Origin: Leptonemataceae bacterium
Lineage (GTDB): Bacteria; Spirochaetota; Leptospiria; Leptospirales; Leptonemataceae
DNA length: 64,000 nucleotides
Reading direction: 5' to 3'
Assembly (NCBI GenBank): GCA_965227295.1
Contig: OZ245742.1
Span: 1,376,001-1,440,000 of the forward strand
Shown here: positions 1 through 47,760 of the stretch, in pieces
Position numbering within the stretch: position 1 is the stretch's first letter
Layout of the letters: every line of letters begins with the position of its first letter
Translations under genes and position numbers: made by a program
The notes under the pieces: model-generated
Database searches by the model: none
Told to the model about the DNA's origin: nothing
What the model saw: the letters and a program-made list of their open reading frames with translations, nothing else

Positions 1-180
1 GTAATTGAACGGGGTGACGTCGTAATAACCGAAGAAGACCTGGCGGCCCGGTGCGGAGAATTCCCGCAGCGGCAGGTAGCTGTGATAACTTCGCAGGCCG
101 TGGCGTAGATAACGCAGGCGACGCAGCATCCAGGTCAGCGTGCGAAAGACGATGGTGGCGATCGTATCGCGGAGGGACAC
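1..180 (-). CDS. Partial CDS running off the window edge; hypothetical, possibly a beta-propeller protein
   Basis: My translation from GTG at 180: MSLRDTIATIVFRTLTWMLRRLRYLRHGLRSYHSYLPLREFSAPGRQVFFGYYDVTPFNY, open to position 1. FFGYYD..PF resembles propeller-protein starts. Confidence 0.55.
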   Translation of the reverse strand, partial: MSLRDTIATIVFRTLTWMLRRLRYLRHGLRSYHSYLPLREFSAPGRQVFFGYYDVTPFNY

Positions 181-262
181 GCCGAACCTTCACCCGCGTG
201 CGCCCGGCGGGTCAAGCGCGATTGTCGCCGCGCGCGAAACATCATCATACGCGTCATGCACA

Positions 263-2560
263 TCAAAACTCCAGGTACATCTGCGCGCCGGGCTTGCGCG
301 CGAAGTACTCCGGCGGTGCGAAGTGTTCCCAGACCTCGCGATAAACTTCCCACAACAATCGCCGGTAGTACTCGACGTCGTAGCGAGGCTCGCCGCGCTG
401 TAGATCCAGGGCTTCTTCGGAAACGTAACGCCGGGCCGGATCGCGGTGGCGATGGTTCACGGCCAGGTAGCGAATCTTATCGCCGGGCTGCAGTTCCACG
501 CCGGTGCTCGCACGGATTTGACTCAGGGCGGTGACCGTGGCACTGGAACGCGCGGCGTAGTCCTCGAGCGGCCGCGTGACTTTGCGGCGGATCATCAGAT
601 CGCGGGCAGGCACGGTGCGCGCGGCGAGTTCGGCTTCGAACTTCTCGAAGCGCGCGCGGATTTTCGGATGGGCCGCGCGCAGATCTTCGACGTCGGTGTA
701 TGCGCTCATGTCGTCCAGTAATTGCAACTGAACGTTTCTTAAGAAATCCGGTGTGTCCTTGCGCCGGGCCGCTACGCCGCGGATTTTGATTTCGCCGTCA
801 TCGAAGCGGCCGAAGTAGCGATTGATGACTCCCAGCTCCGGATCGCTCTTCGACGGCAGAAAGACCACCCAGGAGTACACGCCCTCGATGGCCATGTCGA
901 TGCGCGTCGAGGACTTAATGTCCAGGCAGAGCAAGTTTAGATCCTCGCGGTCGATGGGCGTCTCGTCCGGATGATGAATGAAGATCGAGTCGGTGATGCC
1001 GTGGGCCAGGCGGTAACCTCGTTCCTCGGCGCGCTCTTTGGCAGTAAGCAGTTTTTCGCGACCCCAGGCGGTGACGCTCTCATGACTTTCGATGCGGCCG
1101 AACTTTGCGTTGCGATAACCCAGGTAACCGAACGACGTCACGAGCATCCATTTAATGGAGCGTTGCATGGCGTCGTAGACTTCCCGGAGCGGGCCCTCGG
1201 TTTCGTTCTTGCGTTGTTTGTAGTACGCGCGCCGGGTCAGAATGCGTTCGAGGGCCTCGGACACCACGCCCCGGCGTTTCGTGCACACACGGTAGCCGGC
1301 TTCCGGCACGCGGTCCACGTGATGGTCGTCGTTGGTGCAACAGGAGCAGTTTACGGTTTCCGGGGAAATGTTGTGAATGGTCATGATGCTCGGATACATC
1401 TGGCTGAAGTCGAGCTGGGCCGTGTTTTCGCGCACGCAGCTCTCGCGTACGTCCGGTACGAACTGTATGCCGCCCTTGTCCACGGAGAGCAGCTCGTAAG
1501 CGTTCTTCGGTTCTTCGATCGCGCTCTTTTGCCAGGGCACCAGGTAGCCCGAGTCCAACGCTACTTTTGTTTCAATGGAAGTTAGCGCGGCGCCGGTGGA
1601 GGACCGGGACATGCGCTGCACCGGAATACAGGACAATCGTGCGAGTTCGATGACGCCGATCAGCTCGGCTTCTTTGTAAACGAAGGAGTTGGCCGAGTCC
1701 ACGTGCAGACGGCCGAAGAGCGGATACGCCGGCGCGACGTAAATCCACGATCCGTAGGTGTTAAAGCTGTGGCCTTTGCGGAGAATCTTGCGCGCGGTGA
1801 ACGGCGCGTCGCGATCGAGTTTCAAAGGCAGTTTACGGCGCTGGGCGGTTTCGAAGAGGTACGGAAAGATCGTCTGGTCGCCGTACGAAGAGAGGACAAT
1901 GTCCGGATCGTGCTCGTCGAAGGCGGCGTTGAGTTCCAGGATGAGCGCACGCGGGTCTTTGCCGGGAAGTTCGCGGCGTTCGCCGTTCCCTTCGACAATG
2001 AGTGTGTTCTCCGTAAACGGCAGCCGGTGGCTGCGGGCGAGTCGCATCGTTAAAATGCGCAGCGGCGGCAGTTCGTACTCCAGGTCGTCGGCAGTGTTGA
2101 TCTTTTCGATGTGTGCGATGCGATCGATCTTCGCCGCGGCGGCGAGCTCGCGTTCGGTTTCGAGACGCACCCGCGCGAAAGGATGAACGTTCTTTGCGTA
2201 CATGTAGGCCGTGGGAACTTCGATGTCGGAATGGTAGACATCCAGGCGGCCGTAAAACGCATAGAGTCGTCGGCGAACGCGGCGTAGTACCGACGGCCGG
2301 GCGATCTTAATTTCCAGTACGCGTTGCGGTTCGTTCTTATAAAAATGCGTGCGCAGTACGTAGCGTGGTTCCGCGGCCAGAGCGTTCATGGCCTGGAGGC
2401 GGTCGACGAAGTTACGCAACGTCGTCTCCGGCCCGGCCGCATAGATCGACGGATGAAAGCGATCCCGCACCAGATGCGCCCGGCCGGTGTCGTCGAGGAT
2501 CCAGACATAGATGTCGTCCTCGAAATGGTAGATATCCAGTATAAATCCCTGGAGAATCAT
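263..2560 (-). CDS. polB: Family B DNA polymerase, PolB2-type, with degenerate proofreading domain
   Basis: 765 aa. Motif A LDFSQMYPSIM, HNISPETVNCSCC, motif B KWMLVTSFGYLG, motif C HGITDSIF, KIRGVAARRKD. ExoI/ExoII acidic residues absent. Confidence 0.93.
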   Translation of the reverse strand: MILQGFILDIYHFEDDIYVWILDDTGRAHLVRDRFHPSIYAAGPETTLRNFVDRLQAMNALAAEPRYVLRTHFYKNEPQRVLEIKIARPSVLRRVRRRLYAFYGRLDVYHSDIEVPTAYMYAKNVHPFARVRLETERELAAAAKIDRIAHIEKINTADDLEYELPPLRILTMRLARSHRLPFTENTLIVEGNGERRELPGKDPRALILELNAAFDEHDPDIVLSSYGDQTIFPYLFETAQRRKLPLKLDRDAPFTARKILRKGHSFNTYGSWIYVAPAYPLFGRLHVDSANSFVYKEAELIGVIELARLSCIPVQRMSRSSTGAALTSIETKVALDSGYLVPWQKSAIEEPKNAYELLSVDKGGIQFVPDVRESCVRENTAQLDFSQMYPSIMTIHNISPETVNCSCCTNDDHHVDRVPEAGYRVCTKRRGVVSEALERILTRRAYYKQRKNETEGPLREVYDAMQRSIKWMLVTSFGYLGYRNAKFGRIESHESVTAWGREKLLTAKERAEERGYRLAHGITDSIFIHHPDETPIDREDLNLLCLDIKSSTRIDMAIEGVYSWVVFLPSKSDPELGVINRYFGRFDDGEIKIRGVAARRKDTPDFLRNVQLQLLDDMSAYTDVEDLRAAHPKIRARFEKFEAELAARTVPARDLMIRRKVTRPLEDYAARSSATVTALSQIRASTGVELQPGDKIRYLAVNHRHRDPARRYVSEEALDLQRGEPRYDVEYYRRLLWEVYREVWEHFAPPEYFARKPGAQMYLEF

Positions 2561-2569
2561 GTTATCTAT

Positions 2570-2851
2570 CGTGTGCGACCCGAATCCTGGTGTAAGTTGC
2601 GGCCAATGTGGATTAAGGATTTTTTGGGTACGGCACCTGGAGAGTTGTGGATTGTTATGGGGTGGCGAGTGGTTGCTTCGACCCGGAACGAACTGGAGTC
2701 ACTGCTCCCGAAGCTGAGTTGCTAATCCGCGTCCGGGCCGAAGTCGACAGTCTTAACAAAACGACTCACCGCAACTCTTCAGGTGCCGTAGCCGTAAAGT
2801 CCCCTTGATAATCCCTCAACTTACCTTATGAATCTCACGACAAACGCCGCG
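2570..2851. repeat. ~280-nt long-hairpin palindromic dispersed element, copy A
   Basis: Arms 2626-2650/2769-2793, 2592-2599/2817-2824 and 2676-2687/2732-2743 are inverted repeats. Homologous to 33081-33368 and 47520-47760. Confidence 0.85.
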
Positions 2852-2867
2852 AATCCCGCGCCGCGAA

Positions 2868-3329
2868 TTACAACGCCATCGATCGAACCGCGGAAAATTC
2901 TTTCGCGAGTGCCTGTAGTTGTTCGCGTAACTCCAGGACCTCCCGCGACGTTGTATCGAGGCGTTCTTCGTGACCCAGGACCCGCTCGGCGATTTCTTCG
3001 ACCAGGCCGTGTTGTTCTTCGCGTTCGTCCGCGTGGTCTTCGAGTTGCTCGAACAGGTCCTGCCGTTCCTCGGATTCGTCCTCGCAGGCGGACAGACGTT
3101 CTTCGTGAGCACCGAGGCGACGCTCGTGTTCAATCAACGCCGCCAGAGCGACGGAGTCGAAAGGATTCGGACTCGCCGCGAGGACGCCGGACTGTAACTG
3201 CAACTTAGCAGATCTTAAGATCGCGTCGAGGGCGTCCTGATCGTCTTTGCGCAACCCGCGCCGAAATTTTTGTAAGCGTGCTTCAATCGCTTCAATCTGC
3301 ATGGAATAAGGAGCCAGCGTTCTGCCCAT
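2868..3329 (-). CDS. PolB2-associated small helical protein (arCOG07300-like) with acidic coiled-coil tail
   Basis: ATG at 3329: MGRTLAPYSMQIEAIEARLQKFRRGLRKDDQDALDAIL...PNPFDSVALAALIEHERRL matches the MGRT...RRxLRxxD...PF pattern of PolB2 accessory proteins. Confidence 0.8.
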   Translation of the reverse strand: MGRTLAPYSMQIEAIEARLQKFRRGLRKDDQDALDAILRSAKLQLQSGVLAASPNPFDSVALAALIEHERRLGAHEERLSACEDESEERQDLFEQLEDHADEREEQHGLVEEIAERVLGHEERLDTTSREVLELREQLQALAKEFSAVRSMAL

Positions 3330-3960
3330 GGGTTTCTCCGATGTAATTGTGATAGTGTGTGTATTGATCGTTGCCGGTGAAGTCGCTGAGACTACGGCGC
3401 ACCGCGGCGAGTTTGTGCAACTCCGGCCGCAATCGTAAAAAGACCGGGTGGTCGTACTCGCGTTCGACGATGACGAGGGGAGTACGTCGGCGTTTGCCGA
3501 TCCAGCGAAACAGATCGAAGAGGCGCTGCAAAAGATACTCGCCTTCGTCTTCGGCCACGTCGCCGTCGAAGAACTGTTTGCACGGCGAAAGAAAAAACCG
3601 CACGCTGCCCTCTTCGTCCTGTGTTTGTCCGCGAGCGATGTTTTGCGCCGTGTCCAGGAGTTGGTACGGTGTAAACGCGCGCTGCACGGTAATGGAATGC
3701 AGCACCGGTTCTGGCGGCACGCCCCGCCGCAGGCATTCGTCGGCCAGGCGAAAGACATTGAAACGATTCGCGCCGTCGACGTTGTGAATCCGACGCCCGG
3801 CGAGGCTTAAAAGCATTTGCCAGTCCAGCGCGAGAGCGAAGGCCGTGGACGACGTGCCGGTGAGCAATCGCGTGCCCGGGCGATGACCGAAAAAGGCCCG
3901 CATGGACACGGCGGCAAAGTCGTGCGCTTCTTCCGGGCTGTGCGGGGCAACGGCGTGCAT
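3292..3960 (-). CDS. Inactivated RecA/RadA-like protein (PolB2-associated, ImuA-analogous)
   Basis: 222 aa. Degenerate Walker A (LLTGTSSTA), VDGANRFN, ITVQRAFTPYQL, FFDGDV. Upstream of the accessory gene and polB. Confidence 0.75.
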   Translation of the reverse strand: MHAVAPHSPEEAHDFAAVSMRAFFGHRPGTRLLTGTSSTAFALALDWQMLLSLAGRRIHNVDGANRFNVFRLADECLRRGVPPEPVLHSITVQRAFTPYQLLDTAQNIARGQTQDEEGSVRFFLSPCKQFFDGDVAEDEGEYLLQRLFDLFRWIGKRRRTPLVIVEREYDHPVFLRLRPELHKLAAVRRSLSDFTGNDQYTHYHNYIGETHGQNAGSLFHAD

Positions 3961-4013
3961 GTCCGCATTGTCGCCGCAAATATATACGCATGTAAAGCTA
4001 ACAAATGTTTTGC
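3961..4013 (-). promoter_or_regulatory. Candidate leaderless sigma70 promoter of the PolB2 cassette, with adjacent AAC-N4-GTT dyad
   Basis: Minus strand: TTTACA (3996-3991), 18 nt, GACAAT (3972-3967), 6 nt, ATG 3960. AACA-AA-TGTT dyad at 4000-4009. Confidence 0.35.
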
Positions 4014-4184
4014 ATCTCCGGATCGGCGGACTTTTTGCGCGGGAGCTGTGGAGTGTTACCGGAATTTCCGGCGCCGTGTAAATTTATGCAGGCCGGTTCG
4101 TCGGCGATGAATGCATCGCGACCGAATCGGTAACATACTTATGCGTCGGCGTTGCGCCCTGTAACATTCTGAATCGGCCGCCGG

Positions 4185-4622
4185 CTAAGTCTGAAGTCGC
4201 TCCCCATGCACTGAAGGACCGTCGCCGCTTTCCAGGGCCTGACGCACAATCTCGTTCACGTAAACGTTTGCGCAGCCGCTCATCACATCCTGCACGATGC
4301 GCAAACCGTAGCCGGCGTGTTCGGTGTGACTCGCCTGATGCAGAATGACCGGAAAGGACTTCTGTAAAAAGGAGCCGTCCATGGCTTCGTCTTCGCTCTC
4401 CCAGGAGTGCGCGTCGTACAGGCCGCGGTCGGGCGACCAGGCCGTGGTCCCCAGCGCCGAAGAAGAAAACCACATGCGCGCCAGCCGGCCGGACGAGTCC
4501 AACGATAACACCAGCCCCCGGCGCACGAAATCCTCGCGCAGAAACTCTTCAAAGTAGACGTCCGTGTAGACGTGGCCGTCCTCGAGGTTCTCTTCGGTCT
4601 CTTTGCGCGTCAGGGTCATCAT
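4185..4622 (-). CDS. Hypothetical protein
   Basis: 145-aa ORF whose start overlaps the stop of the upstream hydrolase (ATGA coupling). Confidence 0.65.
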   Translation of the reverse strand: MMTLTRKETEENLEDGHVYTDVYFEEFLREDFVRRGLVLSLDSSGRLARMWFSSSALGTTAWSPDRGLYDAHSWESEDEAMDGSFLQKSFPVILHQASHTEHAGYGLRIVQDVMSGCANVYVNEIVRQALESGDGPSVHGERLQT

Positions 4623-7383: not shown

Positions 7384-9258
7384 ATGGATGAGATGGAATA
7401 TGACCGCACCCGGAAGTCCATCCGTGCGCAAGACCTGGGCAAGGGCGACCGCAAGGAAATGCTCAGCAAGTTCAAGGGGGCCGGTGGACAGGTCCTCTCC
7501 GAGAAGGCTGTGCGCGAGGCCGAGGAGCAGGCCGCCCGGGAAGGTCGCAGTGGCGGCGGCGGTGGTGGCCGGCGCGGTGTCGGCGTAGGCGAGGAACCCA
7601 GGCTCCCCTCGCAGATCGCCCGGGAGCGACAGCGGGCCGCCGGCGAAAAGGAGGCGGCCGCCCGGCGTCGTCGCGAGGCCGAAGAAAAAGAGGCCACCGG
7701 TTTCTTCGCGCGATTCTCCATTAAACTGCGCTGCTGGATGGCCGGGGTCACGCCCTACGGCGCCGACCTGGTCAAGCCGAAGATCCTCTCGAAATTCAAC
7801 CTGGATACCAAACGTTCCATCATGGAATGCCAGATCCTGGGCAACGATCTGTTTATGAACAACAAGCAGACGGCGCGCAAGATTGTCAAAGAGCTGGACG
7901 AGAAAAATCCCATGCTCGTCGAACTCATCGAGCGCGCTTCGAAGCTCTACGACCGCGGCGAACTGTCGGAGTTGGTGGGATCCTACACGCCGGGTTCCAG
8001 TCACTCCATTCCCCTCGATGCCATCCGCGTGCCCGTGTTCACGCTGCTACGCAAGCTTTACTACTTGAAGCCGTTCCAGGAAACCTATCTCGGTGCCGTG
8101 GAAGCGGCCATCGACGTCCAGCAGAGCGAAGAGAAGAAGCAGTCCGCGCTCTACTCCACGAAGAAACGCAAGATTCGTCAGGACTGGAAAATCCTCATGA
8201 ACGACATTTACCCGGCCCTGGTGCTGCTGGCCCAGCGTGCGGAAATGAAGAAGGCCGAGCCGGGCACGCGGTTGTTCGAAGAGATGATCGGCGTGCAGGA
8301 AGAGGATCGCATCGGCCAGCGGAAGGCCGGCGAGGGTGTCGGCGATGTGGGCGACGACGCGCCGAAGAAAAAAGAAGCCGAGAAGAAAGAGGAAGAAGAA
8401 AAGAAAGCCAAAGAGGAAGAAGAGAAAAAGAAGGGCCCGTCCCAGGAAGACAAGGAACTCATGTACGGCTATCGCATCATGGGCATCTTCAACATGGGCA
8501 CGCTGCGCAAGAAGCACGATCCCAGGGGCGAGTACAAAGCCCTCAAGGACAACGACAAGGTGCTCATCGCCTACTTCTACTTCCTGGAGTTCGAAGAAGA
8601 GTATTCGTTCATTCTCACCACGCCGCAAATCAACATCGAACCCAACTACGCCGGCGGCGCGAAGATCGACTATCGCCAGAAAATGCGCGACATCTACGAC
8701 AACTCGCGCCTGGTAACGGACGCATTCAAGAAATACGCTCACGAAGGCGCGGAGTACAATCGCATCGTCTCCGAGAACGTCGACCAATCGCGGTACGTCG
8801 AGCACGCGAAGAAGGTCGAGTTAATGGAAGCGCGGCGCGGGCCCAGCGGCCGGGAAGCGCGCATTCAAATCAAAGAGCACATGGAACGCGTCTCTCAGGT
8901 ACTCAAGGTCCTCATCGACGACATGCGCGGCGCCAATCAAATCGTAACGAACCGCGACGAGATCGTGAAGTTCCAGATCGAACGCGACAAACGCAAGCGC
9001 CTCAACAACAAGCCGGTGAAAGACTGCATCATGCAGGCTTACTGTTTCACCATCGGTCTCGCCGACCGCCTCGAAAACGGCGACCTCTTCGGCGGCGTCA
9101 TCGAGATGAACGAAGAAGAGATGGGCGAGGCCTTCGCCAACGCGCCCGCCGCGCAGACGGGCCCGCAGGTACCGACGGCGTCGGCGTCGGGCGGCCCTTC
9201 CGTCGCCGATGAAGTAGACGAAGCGGAAAGCAGCGCGGGCGACGCATCCGGCGAATGA
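7384..9258 (+). CDS. Hypothetical helical/coiled-coil protein
   Basis: 624-aa ORF with host-like codon usage and K/E-rich segments. Stop overlaps the prmA start. Confidence 0.85.
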   Translation: MDEMEYDRTRKSIRAQDLGKGDRKEMLSKFKGAGGQVLSEKAVREAEEQAAREGRSGGGGGGRRGVGVGEEPRLPSQIARERQRAAGEKEAAARRRREAEEKEATGFFARFSIKLRCWMAGVTPYGADLVKPKILSKFNLDTKRSIMECQILGNDLFMNNKQTARKIVKELDEKNPMLVELIERASKLYDRGELSELVGSYTPGSSHSIPLDAIRVPVFTLLRKLYYLKPFQETYLGAVEAAIDVQQSEEKKQSALYSTKKRKIRQDWKILMNDIYPALVLLAQRAEMKKAEPGTRLFEEMIGVQEEDRIGQRKAGEGVGDVGDDAPKKKEAEKKEEEEKKAKEEEEKKKGPSQEDKELMYGYRIMGIFNMGTLRKKHDPRGEYKALKDNDKVLIAYFYFLEFEEEYSFILTTPQINIEPNYAGGAKIDYRQKMRDIYDNSRLVTDAFKKYAHEGAEYNRIVSENVDQSRYVEHAKKVELMEARRGPSGREARIQIKEHMERVSQVLKVLIDDMRGANQIVTNRDEIVKFQIERDKRKRLNNKPVKDCIMQAYCFTIGLADRLENGDLFGGVIEMNEEEMGEAFANAPAAQTGPQVPTASASGGPSVADEVDEAESSAGDASGE

Positions 9259-33080: not shown

Positions 33081-33368
33081 GCACGCCCCGAATCGTGGTG
33101 TAAGTTAAGGCCAACGTATATTAAGACTTTTATGGGCACAGCTGGTTCCAGCTAACGGACGGAGGTCATGCCGGGGAAATGTGGGGCGCGCACCGGAACG
33201 GCGTCTTCGCCGCAGGAGTCGTTGTGGAAACAGAGTCGCAAACCCGCGTCCGGGTCGAATTCAGCGTGCTTTGCAAAACGAAACACCACAACTCCCGCTC
33301 AGCCGTAGCAAAAAGATCCCCGCCTTCGTAGCGAAACCGACTCTGTGTGTCTCACGGCCAGCGCCGCG
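33081..33368. repeat. ~280-nt palindromic dispersed element, copy C (most diverged)
   Basis: Blocks CCCGAATCGTGGTGTAAGTT..GGCCAA, CCGCGTCCGGG, TTTGCAAAACG, GCCGTAGC and CGCCGCG are shared with copies A and/or B. Confidence 0.7.
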
Positions 33369-47529: not shown

Positions 47530-47760
47530 GATTCATGGTACGGCACCTGGAGAGTTGCGGAATGTTACGGGGTGGCGAACGGCGTCTTCGGCCCGGAACG
47601 TTTGGGAGTCACGTCTCCCGAAGCTGAGTTGCCAGGCCGCGTCCGGGCCGAAGTAGACTCTCTTTGCAAAACGCCTGCCCGCAACTCCGAAGAGCCGTAG
47701 CCAAAAAATCCCCGTTAACTTTCCGAGATTTACACCTTGATTCTTGCAGCCAACGCCGCG
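47520..47760. repeat. Palindromic dispersed element, copy B (left outer arm partly deleted)
   Basis: GGTACGGCACCTGGAGAGTTG, CTCCCGAAGCTGAGTTGC and CCGCGTCCGGGCCGAAGT are identical to copy A. Confidence 0.85.

Follow-up and report, generated by a model that had tools for sequence, protein, structure and literature searches.

The closest described systems are operons that join a B-family DNA polymerase, PolB2, to two accessory genes. Makarova et al. (2014, PMC4104785) reported the trio as linked in archaea and in 'several bacterial genomes', with lexA present in some of the bacterial operons, and Timinskas et al. (2025, PMC11791011) gave iRadA-PPB2-PolB2 as the sole gene order in bacteria. In the latter work the 'PolB2 mutasome' was modelled as a heteropentamer of PolB2, iRadA and a PPB2 trimer. 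In this model one PPB2 subunit has its MGRT arm inserted between PolB2 and iRadA, and the stretch of polymerase that precedes D(K/R) attaches to iRadA in the manner of a Rad51 oligomerisation motif (PMC11791011). A 2026 survey restates this account (PMC12926913). The archaeal PolB2 of Sulfolobus islandicus, Dpo2, is an active, damage-inducible extender that is needed for damage tolerance and induced mutagenesis (PMC8764526, PMC7390963). We analysed a related operon in a stretch of 64,000 nucleotides from a Leptonemataceae bacterium (assembly GCA_965227295.1, contig OZ245742.1, positions 1,376,001 to 1,440,000 of the forward strand). This whole stretch, called the window below, corresponds to G000:C1:1376001-1440000 of a genome that consists of a single contig of 5.94 Mb.

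An earlier note on the window had placed three co-oriented genes at 263..3960 and had read them as an archaeal-style PolB2 cassette and a candidate alternative mutasome. All three genes were recovered at these coordinates on the minus strand. They lie head to tail, with an overlap of 38 nt between iRadA and PPB2 and a spacer of 307 nt between PPB2 and PolB2:

3960..3292, minus strand: iRadA, 222 amino acids (aa), an inactivated RadA/Rad51-like protein (open reading frame (ORF) call, model and alignment)
3329..2868, minus strand: PPB2 (arCOG07300 / DUF8156 family), 153 aa, starting MGRT (ORF call, alignment and model)
2560..263, minus strand: PolB2, 765 aa, a family B DNA polymerase whose exonuclease domain is inactivated (ORF call, Pfam, NCBIfam and alignment)

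The trio is almost certainly a bacterial PolB2 operon of the order iRadA-PPB2-PolB2. It has the three protein families and the gene order of the published PolB2 mutasome, and likewise its MGRT arm, D(K/R) motif and single-aspartate motif C, together with a dead exonuclease, an iRadA without an ATPase site, a predicted contact before D(K/R) and clamp-motif-like C-termini (PMC11791011). The cassette reading thus agrees with the published definitions. The mutasome proposal fits the published complex equally, but it is not new, as the parallel to Pol V is already in print (PMC11791011). The kind of operon is one already described for bacteria, and the window holds a further copy with local variation. 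Unlike the lexA-bearing operons, it has no lexA nearby. It also differs from the described mutasomes in a PPB2 of 153 aa with an acidic coiled-coil insertion of ∼53 aa, in a dispersed repeat between PPB2 and PolB2 and in an iRadA tail that shares its bases with the PPB2 arm. Finally, PolB2 and iRadA both end in clamp-motif-like tails, unlike in most PolB2 mutasomes, where this combination is infrequent (PMC11791011).

The polymerase and its two partners

The 765-aa protein matched the Pfam model DNA_pol_B (PF00136) at 1.7e-34, and none of the exonuclease-domain Pfam models matched it at E ≤ 1. The best NCBIfam models were two for 'type B DNA-directed DNA polymerase' (PRK05761 series), which gave 363 bits (NF004416) and 341 bits, both under the cut-off. 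When 14 control genomes were searched with NF004416, matches were found in five and none was above the cut-off. Among solved structures, the closest were archaeal enzymes, namely PolBs from Pyrococcus and Thermococcus (6e-42) and the Dpo1 of Sulfolobus (6e-30), followed by eukaryotic Pol alpha (9e-16) and Pol delta; E. coli Pol II does not appear by name among the 60 PDB matches listed. None of the NCBIfam models for Pol II scored above 62.5 bits, and the best-scoring of these has its cut-off at 570. The true Pol II of this genome is encoded elsewhere, at G000:C1:995738-998176, with 821 bits on NF004421 (cut-off 570), so that the genome has two family B polymerases. The low score on the Pol II models and the separate Pol II gene together indicate that the window polymerase is not Pol II.

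To compare individual residues, we used an alignment of 74 PolB2 rows, in which the window protein (G000) stands beside 13 proteins of the Leptospirales and 60 polymerases read at loci in other phyla; it holds a few duplicate rows (e.g. L047/P0004 and L049/P0055). The motif A aspartate (D384), the motif B lysine (K470) and the second motif C aspartate (D524) were each present in 74 of 74 rows. The first catalytic aspartate of motif C is replaced, position 522 being isoleucine, leucine or valine throughout the alignment. A similar loss was seen in the exonuclease domain: the position of the catalytic Exo II aspartate is I231 in the HMMER alignment to Pyrococcus abyssi PolB and is leucine, isoleucine or phenylalanine in all 74 rows. 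The stretch that we take to be Exo I contains no conserved carboxylates. The first three positions of the D(K/R)GG motif are kept in every row, with D361 and G363 invariant and position 362 occupied by lysine in 54 rows and arginine in 20. The segments concerned are:

989..997, minus strand: motif C, I522-T523-D524 (HGITDS), with the first catalytic aspartate replaced (opposite the DTD of P. abyssi PolB in the alignment)
1283..1348, minus strand: cysteine cluster C405-x-C407-C408...C426, directly after motif A (74-row alignment)
1475..1531, minus strand: PolB2 residues 344-362, the predicted iRadA dock (344-358) followed by D361-K362 (co-fold and alignment)

We took D361-K362 to be the published D(K/R) motif on account of its spacing to motifs A and C and of the predicted iRadA contact directly before it. 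D249-R250 was tried for the same motif and rejected; it aligns to the GRD of P. abyssi PolB, and is thus a general PolB feature, and the published spacing disagrees with it. In the literature, the B2/G2 group is marked by a single aspartate in motif C (PMC7544198, PMC11791011), a non-conserved Exo I and the group-specific D(K/R) motif (PMC7544198), and a missing Exo III also belongs to its definition. The alignment shows a protein that keeps the polymerase residues, appears to have lost proofreading and carries the PolB2-specific D(K/R)GG.

Cysteines C405, C407, C408 and C426 were each found in 73 of the 74 rows, and C408 and C426 align with two cysteines of P. abyssi PolB. The cluster may be a metal site or a disulfide. 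A search of the main texts of PMC11791011 and PMC7544198 gave no mention of a cysteine cluster for the PolB2 group, the only occurrences belonging to other contexts. The GITDS motif, the lost exonuclease residues and the CxCC...C arrangement, all of which had been picked out beforehand, are therefore borne out by the 74-row alignment and by the absence of an exonuclease Pfam match.

The product of the first gene had been described as a RecA-fold protein without a Walker A lysine. No significant match to its sequence was found in Pfam or NCBIfam. An AlphaFold model of iRadA from 37 relatives reached a predicted local distance difference test (pLDDT) score of 87, and the best PDB matches of this model were the ATPase cores of RadA, RAD51 and DMC1 (Foldseek E 4e-8, TM ∼0.55–0.61). 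Where RadA has GxxGxGKT, the window protein reads LLTGTSSTAF at the P-loop position; G35 is invariant and the residues after LLTG are not conserved. None of the 37 aligned relatives has GK[ST] or a Walker A lysine after strand 1. Only one helix precedes strand 1 in the model, from which it follows that the N-terminal domain of RadA is absent. iRadA is thus a RadA/Rad51-fold protein whose ATPase site has been lost, as the earlier description had it.

For the second gene, a small helical protein of the pattern MGRT...RRxLRxxD had been proposed. In 33 aligned relatives of PPB2, M1, G2, R3 and T4 are nearly invariant (at least 90%), and F22, R23, R24, L26, R27, D30 and Q31 are invariant (FRRxLRxxDQ). 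The model has residues 1–7 as a free arm, followed by three helices at 8–24, 28–47 and 56–152, the last of them 97 residues long. Both the motifs and the helical character are thus confirmed. Pfam and NCBIfam searches, with libraries that do not hold PF26485, gave nothing significant; the PF26485 label (DUF8156) is precomputed on all 47 proteins listed, window PPB2 included, which answers for its assignment to arCOG07300. A profile search returned 1841 representative relatives at E ≤ 0.001, mostly of 85–130 aa. The nearest Atlas clusters are mostly archaeal and named DUF8156, with a score of 0.88 that has the standing of a lead only. Two of the ten clusters looked up gave organism names for PPB2 relatives, and both were bacterial. 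The archaeal link of PPB2 is accordingly a lead, drawn from the Atlas and the literature. A sigma-factor N-terminal-like fold was also looked for in PPB2; there was no Foldseek match at E ≤ 0.001, and the VIA-align matches, with Z up to 7.4, were all to generic coiled coils and fell on the dominant long helix. This helix contains the insertion mentioned above:

2944-3104, minus strand: acidic insertion of ∼53 aa (about residues 76–128) in the long helix of PPB2 (length and alignment versus relatives)

The insertion has 21 aspartate or glutamate residues versus five lysine or arginine residues, and does not occur in the nearest relatives of 101 aa, those of the same genus included. In public sources, homologues of both accessory genes carry the label 'hypothetical protein', and the main value of the analysis for the window lies in their correct annotation.

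Co-folding of PolB2 with iRadA gave a median ipSAE of 0.68 (0.60, 0.68 and 0.72 in the individual runs), compared to 0.00 for the best of three controls. The runs share at least 66% of their contacts, and the pLDDT of the partner was at least 76. Confident contacts join PolB2 residues 344–358 to iRadA residues 84–104, a region that includes the invariant RAFTPYQ stretch of iRadA. Among solved complexes, 58 of 80 attained this ipSAE mark, as did two of 110 mismatched pairs; this calibration applies only roughly here, as custom unpaired alignments were used, and this tells against the prediction. The PDB sequence matches to PolB2 include no solved structure of a PolB2-iRadA complex. The co-fold supports binding of iRadA by PolB2 at the level of a model. 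Of the multimer of all three proteins that the earlier note had in mind, it covers the PolB2-iRadA pair, with PPB2 outside the model.

Distribution of the operon

The genome belongs to family f1 of the Leptospirales in our kinship table, in which genomes with Leptospira-named proteins form a separate family, f2; proteins of the relatives are labelled Leptospirales bacterium, Turneriella or Leptospira. Of 41 related genomes searched, 30 have PolB2 and 29 have iRadA. All three genes occur in the order iRadA-PPB2-PolB2 on one strand at 27 of the 30 Leptospirales loci, as the synteny expected for such a cassette. The three exceptions comprise two loci with the first gene only (one of them cut by a contig end) and one with the first two genes only.

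Species-representative genomes were also scanned for PPB2, and the best 80 of 452 loci were examined, all of which are bacterial. They come from Thermodesulfobacteriota (Deltaproteobacteria), Bacteroidota, Ignavibacteriota, WOR-3 and Leptospirales. The same trio, in the same order and on one strand, was present at 66 of these 80 loci; the remainder had PPB2 and PolB2 only (10 loci), iRadA and PPB2 only (three) or PPB2 only (one), several of them being cut by contig ends. The small genes thus have PolB2-linked homologues across many phyla, as had been surmised, and the recurrence of the trio is far beyond chance.

A search of 50,697 phage records gave a full-length relative of PolB2 in four Leptospira LE1-type records only, with 46–49% identity. 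The other eight matches were weak and partial, and were to haloarchaeal virus polymerases. In the one record of the four that was inspected, that of Leptospira phage vB_LbrZ_5399-LE1 (54551-62797), an iRadA homologue and a small ORF lie directly upstream of the PolB2 homologue. Judged by this search, the window polymerase is not a typical phage PolB. Among the relatives, the Leptospira-like genome G027 has two copies of the operon, one of them at G027:C10:680922-684386.

Proposed function and its alternatives

Taken as a whole, the statement that the trio is a PolB2 operon and that it functions as a damage-tolerance polymerase complex is in our view probably correct. In the proposed mechanism, the PolB2 segment before D(K/R)GG would dock on the ATPase-dead iRadA by beta-sheet addition, as in the Rad51 filament contact. 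Following the published models, a PPB2 trimer would lodge one of its MGRT arms close to the DNA, between the polymerase and iRadA. By analogy with the genetics and biochemistry of archaeal Dpo2, the complex would extend mismatched or lesion-distorted primer ends during damage tolerance, giving rise to induced mutations. We infer from this comparison a damage-inducible, error-prone extender role for the window trio.

Like S. islandicus Dpo2, the window polymerase is of the B family, appears to lack proofreading, has a hydrophobic residue in place of the first motif C aspartate and shares its operon with iRadA and PPB2. Dpo2 is archaeal and uses PCNA, whereas the window protein is bacterial and would use the beta clamp instead. 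Dpo2 also appears much shorter, with a more decayed exonuclease; its DK lies at 253–254 and its IID at 401–403 (PMC11791011), compared to 361–362 and 522–524 in the window. The function of Dpo2 was shown by experiment, whereas the window PolB2 is known here from sequence and model. The trio would also resemble E. coli Pol V (UmuD'2C-RecA) and ImuA-ImuB-DnaE2 in outline, with an error-prone polymerase, a RecA-family partner, a small accessory subunit and a link to damage; the earlier note had drawn the analogy to the latter. The polymerases of those two systems belong to the Y and C families, in contrast to the B family here, and the comparison does not extend to homology between the accessory subunits and UmuD or ImuB. 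With Pol II of the E. coli type the window polymerase shares its family, and a C-terminal clamp motif and an SOS-linked extender role would be further points in common; Pol II works as a single subunit, its exonuclease is active and its motif C keeps both aspartates, and the window PolB2 differs in each of these.

The use of a clamp is suggested by the C-termini of two of the proteins, the first of which is:

266..283, minus strand: C-terminal hexapeptide QMYLEF of PolB2, resembling a beta-clamp-binding motif

The tails of the Leptospirales PolB2 relatives listed are similar, of the form Q[LM]x[LF]x[FLI]. We take both QMYLEF and the iRadA tail GQNAGSLFHAD, with its SLF, to be like the beta-clamp-binding consensus. 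From these tails we infer that the PolB2 complex uses the beta clamp, probably via the QMYLEF tail of PolB2 and perhaps via the SLF tail of iRadA. In the published operons a beta-clamp motif is found in iRadA or in PolB2, and seldom in both (PMC11791011).

A RadA-like subunit might also point to a different task for the complex, namely recombination-linked repair synthesis (D-loop extension, gap filling or fork restart), with iRadA targeting it to recombination intermediates. The predicted filament-type contact through which the Rad51-fold subunit is bound, and the clamp-motif-like tails on both PolB2 and iRadA, are consistent with such a task. However, iRadA has neither the ATP-binding loop nor the domain at the N-terminus that binds DNA, and its host has RecA as its recombinase and not RadA. 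The archaeal genetics, moreover, point to induced mutagenesis (PMC8764526, PMC7390963). We consider this explanation unlikely.

The altered active sites raise the question of whether the polymerase is catalytically dead, the trio then being a non-enzymatic regulatory or scaffold complex, for example at stalled forks or in replication initiation. Motif C is without its first aspartate and the exonuclease site is gone, and Makarova et al. (2014, PMC4104785) read PolB2 as inactive, before activity had been shown. Against this, the motif A aspartate, the motif B lysine and the second motif C aspartate are kept in every row of the alignment, which is hard to explain without catalysis. Dpo2 itself is an active extender needed for damage tolerance (PMC8764526, PMC7390963), and other active PolBs also lack the first motif C aspartate (PMC7544198). 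A dead polymerase is thus improbable.

Least probable of all, and hardly to be expected, is that a mobile element, for instance a phage-plasmid, carries the operon as cargo or uses it for replication, and that it is not a means of host damage tolerance. The LE1-type homologues with their upstream genes and the doubled operon of G027 speak for it, but the window neighbours are ordinary chromosomal genes with no phage-related Pfam match in any of the 11 flanking proteins scanned, GC content (∼60%) shows no shift across the locus, 30 of the 41 related genomes carry the operon and only four of the 50,697 phage records hold a full-length relative.

If the trio is indeed a damage-tolerance complex, it would represent a predicted second kind of mutasome, on which the work so far has been in silico for bacteria and genetic for a single archaeal genus. 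The earlier note knew of no functional characterisation in spirochetes, in keeping with our literature search, in which no paper joining Leptospira with PolB2, or with translesion synthesis and family B, was found (∼1.7 million further PubMed Central articles lay outside this search). The Leptospirales would be a practical test ground, since 30 of 41 genomes carry the operon, named saprophytic Leptospira with genetic tools included. In the present genome there is one match to a Y-family polymerase and a single match to a DnaE-type polymerase (DNA_pol3_alpha), and no DnaE2 or ImuA-ImuB-DnaE2 was found with that query. The question such work could answer is whether a bacterial PolB2 drives damage-induced mutagenesis beside Pol IV and Pol II where no DnaE2 is found.

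Dual coding, the upstream region and the repeat spacer

The local features open to testing are the repeat inside the operon, the cysteine cluster that is conserved, the clamp-motif-like tails on two subunits and the dual-coded overlap. The last of these joins iRadA to PPB2:

3292..3329, minus strand: 38-nt dual-coded iRadA/PPB2 overlap, read in two frames that are one apart, with GGAG 8–11 nt before the PPB2 ATG

Within the overlap, the last 12 codons of iRadA (...GQNAGSLFHAD and the stop) share their bases with the first 12 codons of PPB2 (MGRTLAPYSMQ...). The GQNAGSLFHAD tail is kept in near relatives and is at the same time the alternative-frame reading of the PPB2 arm. In the frame used in the window, the iRadA reading continues across the start of PPB2 at 13 of 28 Leptospirales loci. 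At eight of the 28, all of them in the Leptospira-type family f2, iRadA stops 1–8 nt before the PPB2 ATG, and the untranslated tail still reads x[LVI][FL] in that frame. Outside the Leptospirales (69 loci), 14 loci overlap in the same frame, two are in-frame fusions and 53 are gapped. In the two fusions, L054 (WOR-3) and L055 (an uncultured bacterium), the iRadA frame continues into PPB2 (267-nt overlap, frame 0). Fusions of iRadA to PPB2 are known already (PMC11791011).

We considered whether the SLF tail of iRadA is a mere shadow of PPB2. The shadow frame reads phenylalanine at 10 of 15 loci where it is untranslated versus 11 of 13 where it is translated, and conservation across loci does not decide the matter; only codon usage favours selection. 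The PPB2 codons GCT, CCT and TAT of the window have the wobble bases that give serine, leucine and phenylalanine in the iRadA frame, and their genome usage is 6.9%, 34% (CCT plus CCC) and 29%, respectively. Three T wobbles in a genome of 60% GC have a joint codon-usage probability of ∼0.7%, and this low value hints that the iRadA frame of the overlap is itself under selection. We tentatively suggest, as a possibility with less for it than against it, that in this Leptospirales family the clamp-motif-like tail of iRadA is a latent reading of the PPB2 start, from the same 35–38 bases as the conserved MGRT...PYS arm, which is hidden or exposed by the placement of the stop; this would provide a simple genetic mechanism for the published 'shuttling' of the clamp motif from one to the other of iRadA and PolB2. 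Were it true, both subunits here would carry a clamp handle, and a single complex could then grip the two protomers of the clamp.

Two sites were noted upstream of iRadA:

3967..3996, minus strand: promoter-like TTTACA-18-GACAAT (consensus match only; three sites versus 1.5 expected in shuffles)
3982..3997, minus strand: LexA1-box-like 16-mer with seven of the eight specified positions of the Leptospira interrogans box CTnnACnnnnGTnnAG (pattern match, overlapping the −35 hexamer)

The promoter-like site ends 7 nt before the iRadA ATG and no Shine-Dalgarno sequence is seen there, which together suggest an iRadA mRNA that is leaderless or nearly so. The LexA1 pattern, CTnnACnnnnGTnnAG, was taken from L. 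interrogans (PMC4756842). A perfect match to it lies ∼170–250 nt upstream of recA in the same genome, depending on the start codon chosen. The rate of LexA1-like sites upstream of iRadA was 1.2e-3 versus 1.3e-4 in coding DNA (∼nine times), although only about four lineages contribute and part of the match is accounted for by the −35 hexamer itself. The operon would, if both sites are used, start from a near-leaderless promoter that is overlapped by a LexA1-box-like site and might thereby come under SOS control. Several observations weigh against such control. Perfect matches to the pattern are not enriched genome-wide (36 versus ∼77 expected), and 1196 sites match it with one mismatch. Only eight of 30 Leptospirales loci have, upstream of iRadA, a site that departs from the pattern at no more than one position, and none of them is in genus g22, which we take as Leptospira proper, where the motif was defined. 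In addition, lexA itself lies at G000:C1:2138956-2139567, ∼760 kb from the operon. SOS control of the operon is thus a weak lead. A second, divergent lexA-like gene is found at G000:C1:2071855-2072436, ∼67 kb from the main lexA, with 88 bits under a cut-off of 111.

The operon neighbours in the window comprise a glycosyltransferase-like gene, an enoyl-CoA hydratase, a hydrolase and an adenylate cyclase; five of the 11 flanking proteins scanned had no Pfam match of any kind. Directly upstream of the operon are a Lys/Glu-rich ORF of 624 aa (7384-9258, plus strand) and an ORF of 145 aa (4185-4622, minus strand), neither of which matched Pfam at E ≤ 0.001.

The spacer between the second and third genes contains two further features:

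2561..2867, no strand assigned: PPB2/PolB2 spacer, taken up almost entirely by one copy of a dispersed repeat, with modules at 2576-2634 and 2710-2853
2866..2847, minus strand: weak terminator-like hairpin after the PPB2 stop (sequence scan)

In two genomes of the same genus, the spacers between PPB2 and PolB2 are about 45 and 100 nt long and without the repeat. The 307-nt repeat insertion and the hairpin could uncouple or weaken PolB2 expression, which counts against a trio made as one unit; put more generally, a repeat at this position may alter the coupling of polymerase expression. No Rfam match was found at E ≤ 1 in positions 1–4400 of the window, the repeat spacer included. Across the genome the repeat, which may be a MITE, a REP-like array or another kind of element, gave 264 high-scoring segment pairs at E ≤ 1e-5, 12 of them near full length, and is built of modules of ∼59 nt (123 module-only hits) and ∼140 nt (97 hits). 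Its copies are often in tandem, with a period of ∼330 nt, and partial copies also occur in the window at 33084-33142 and 47537-47713.

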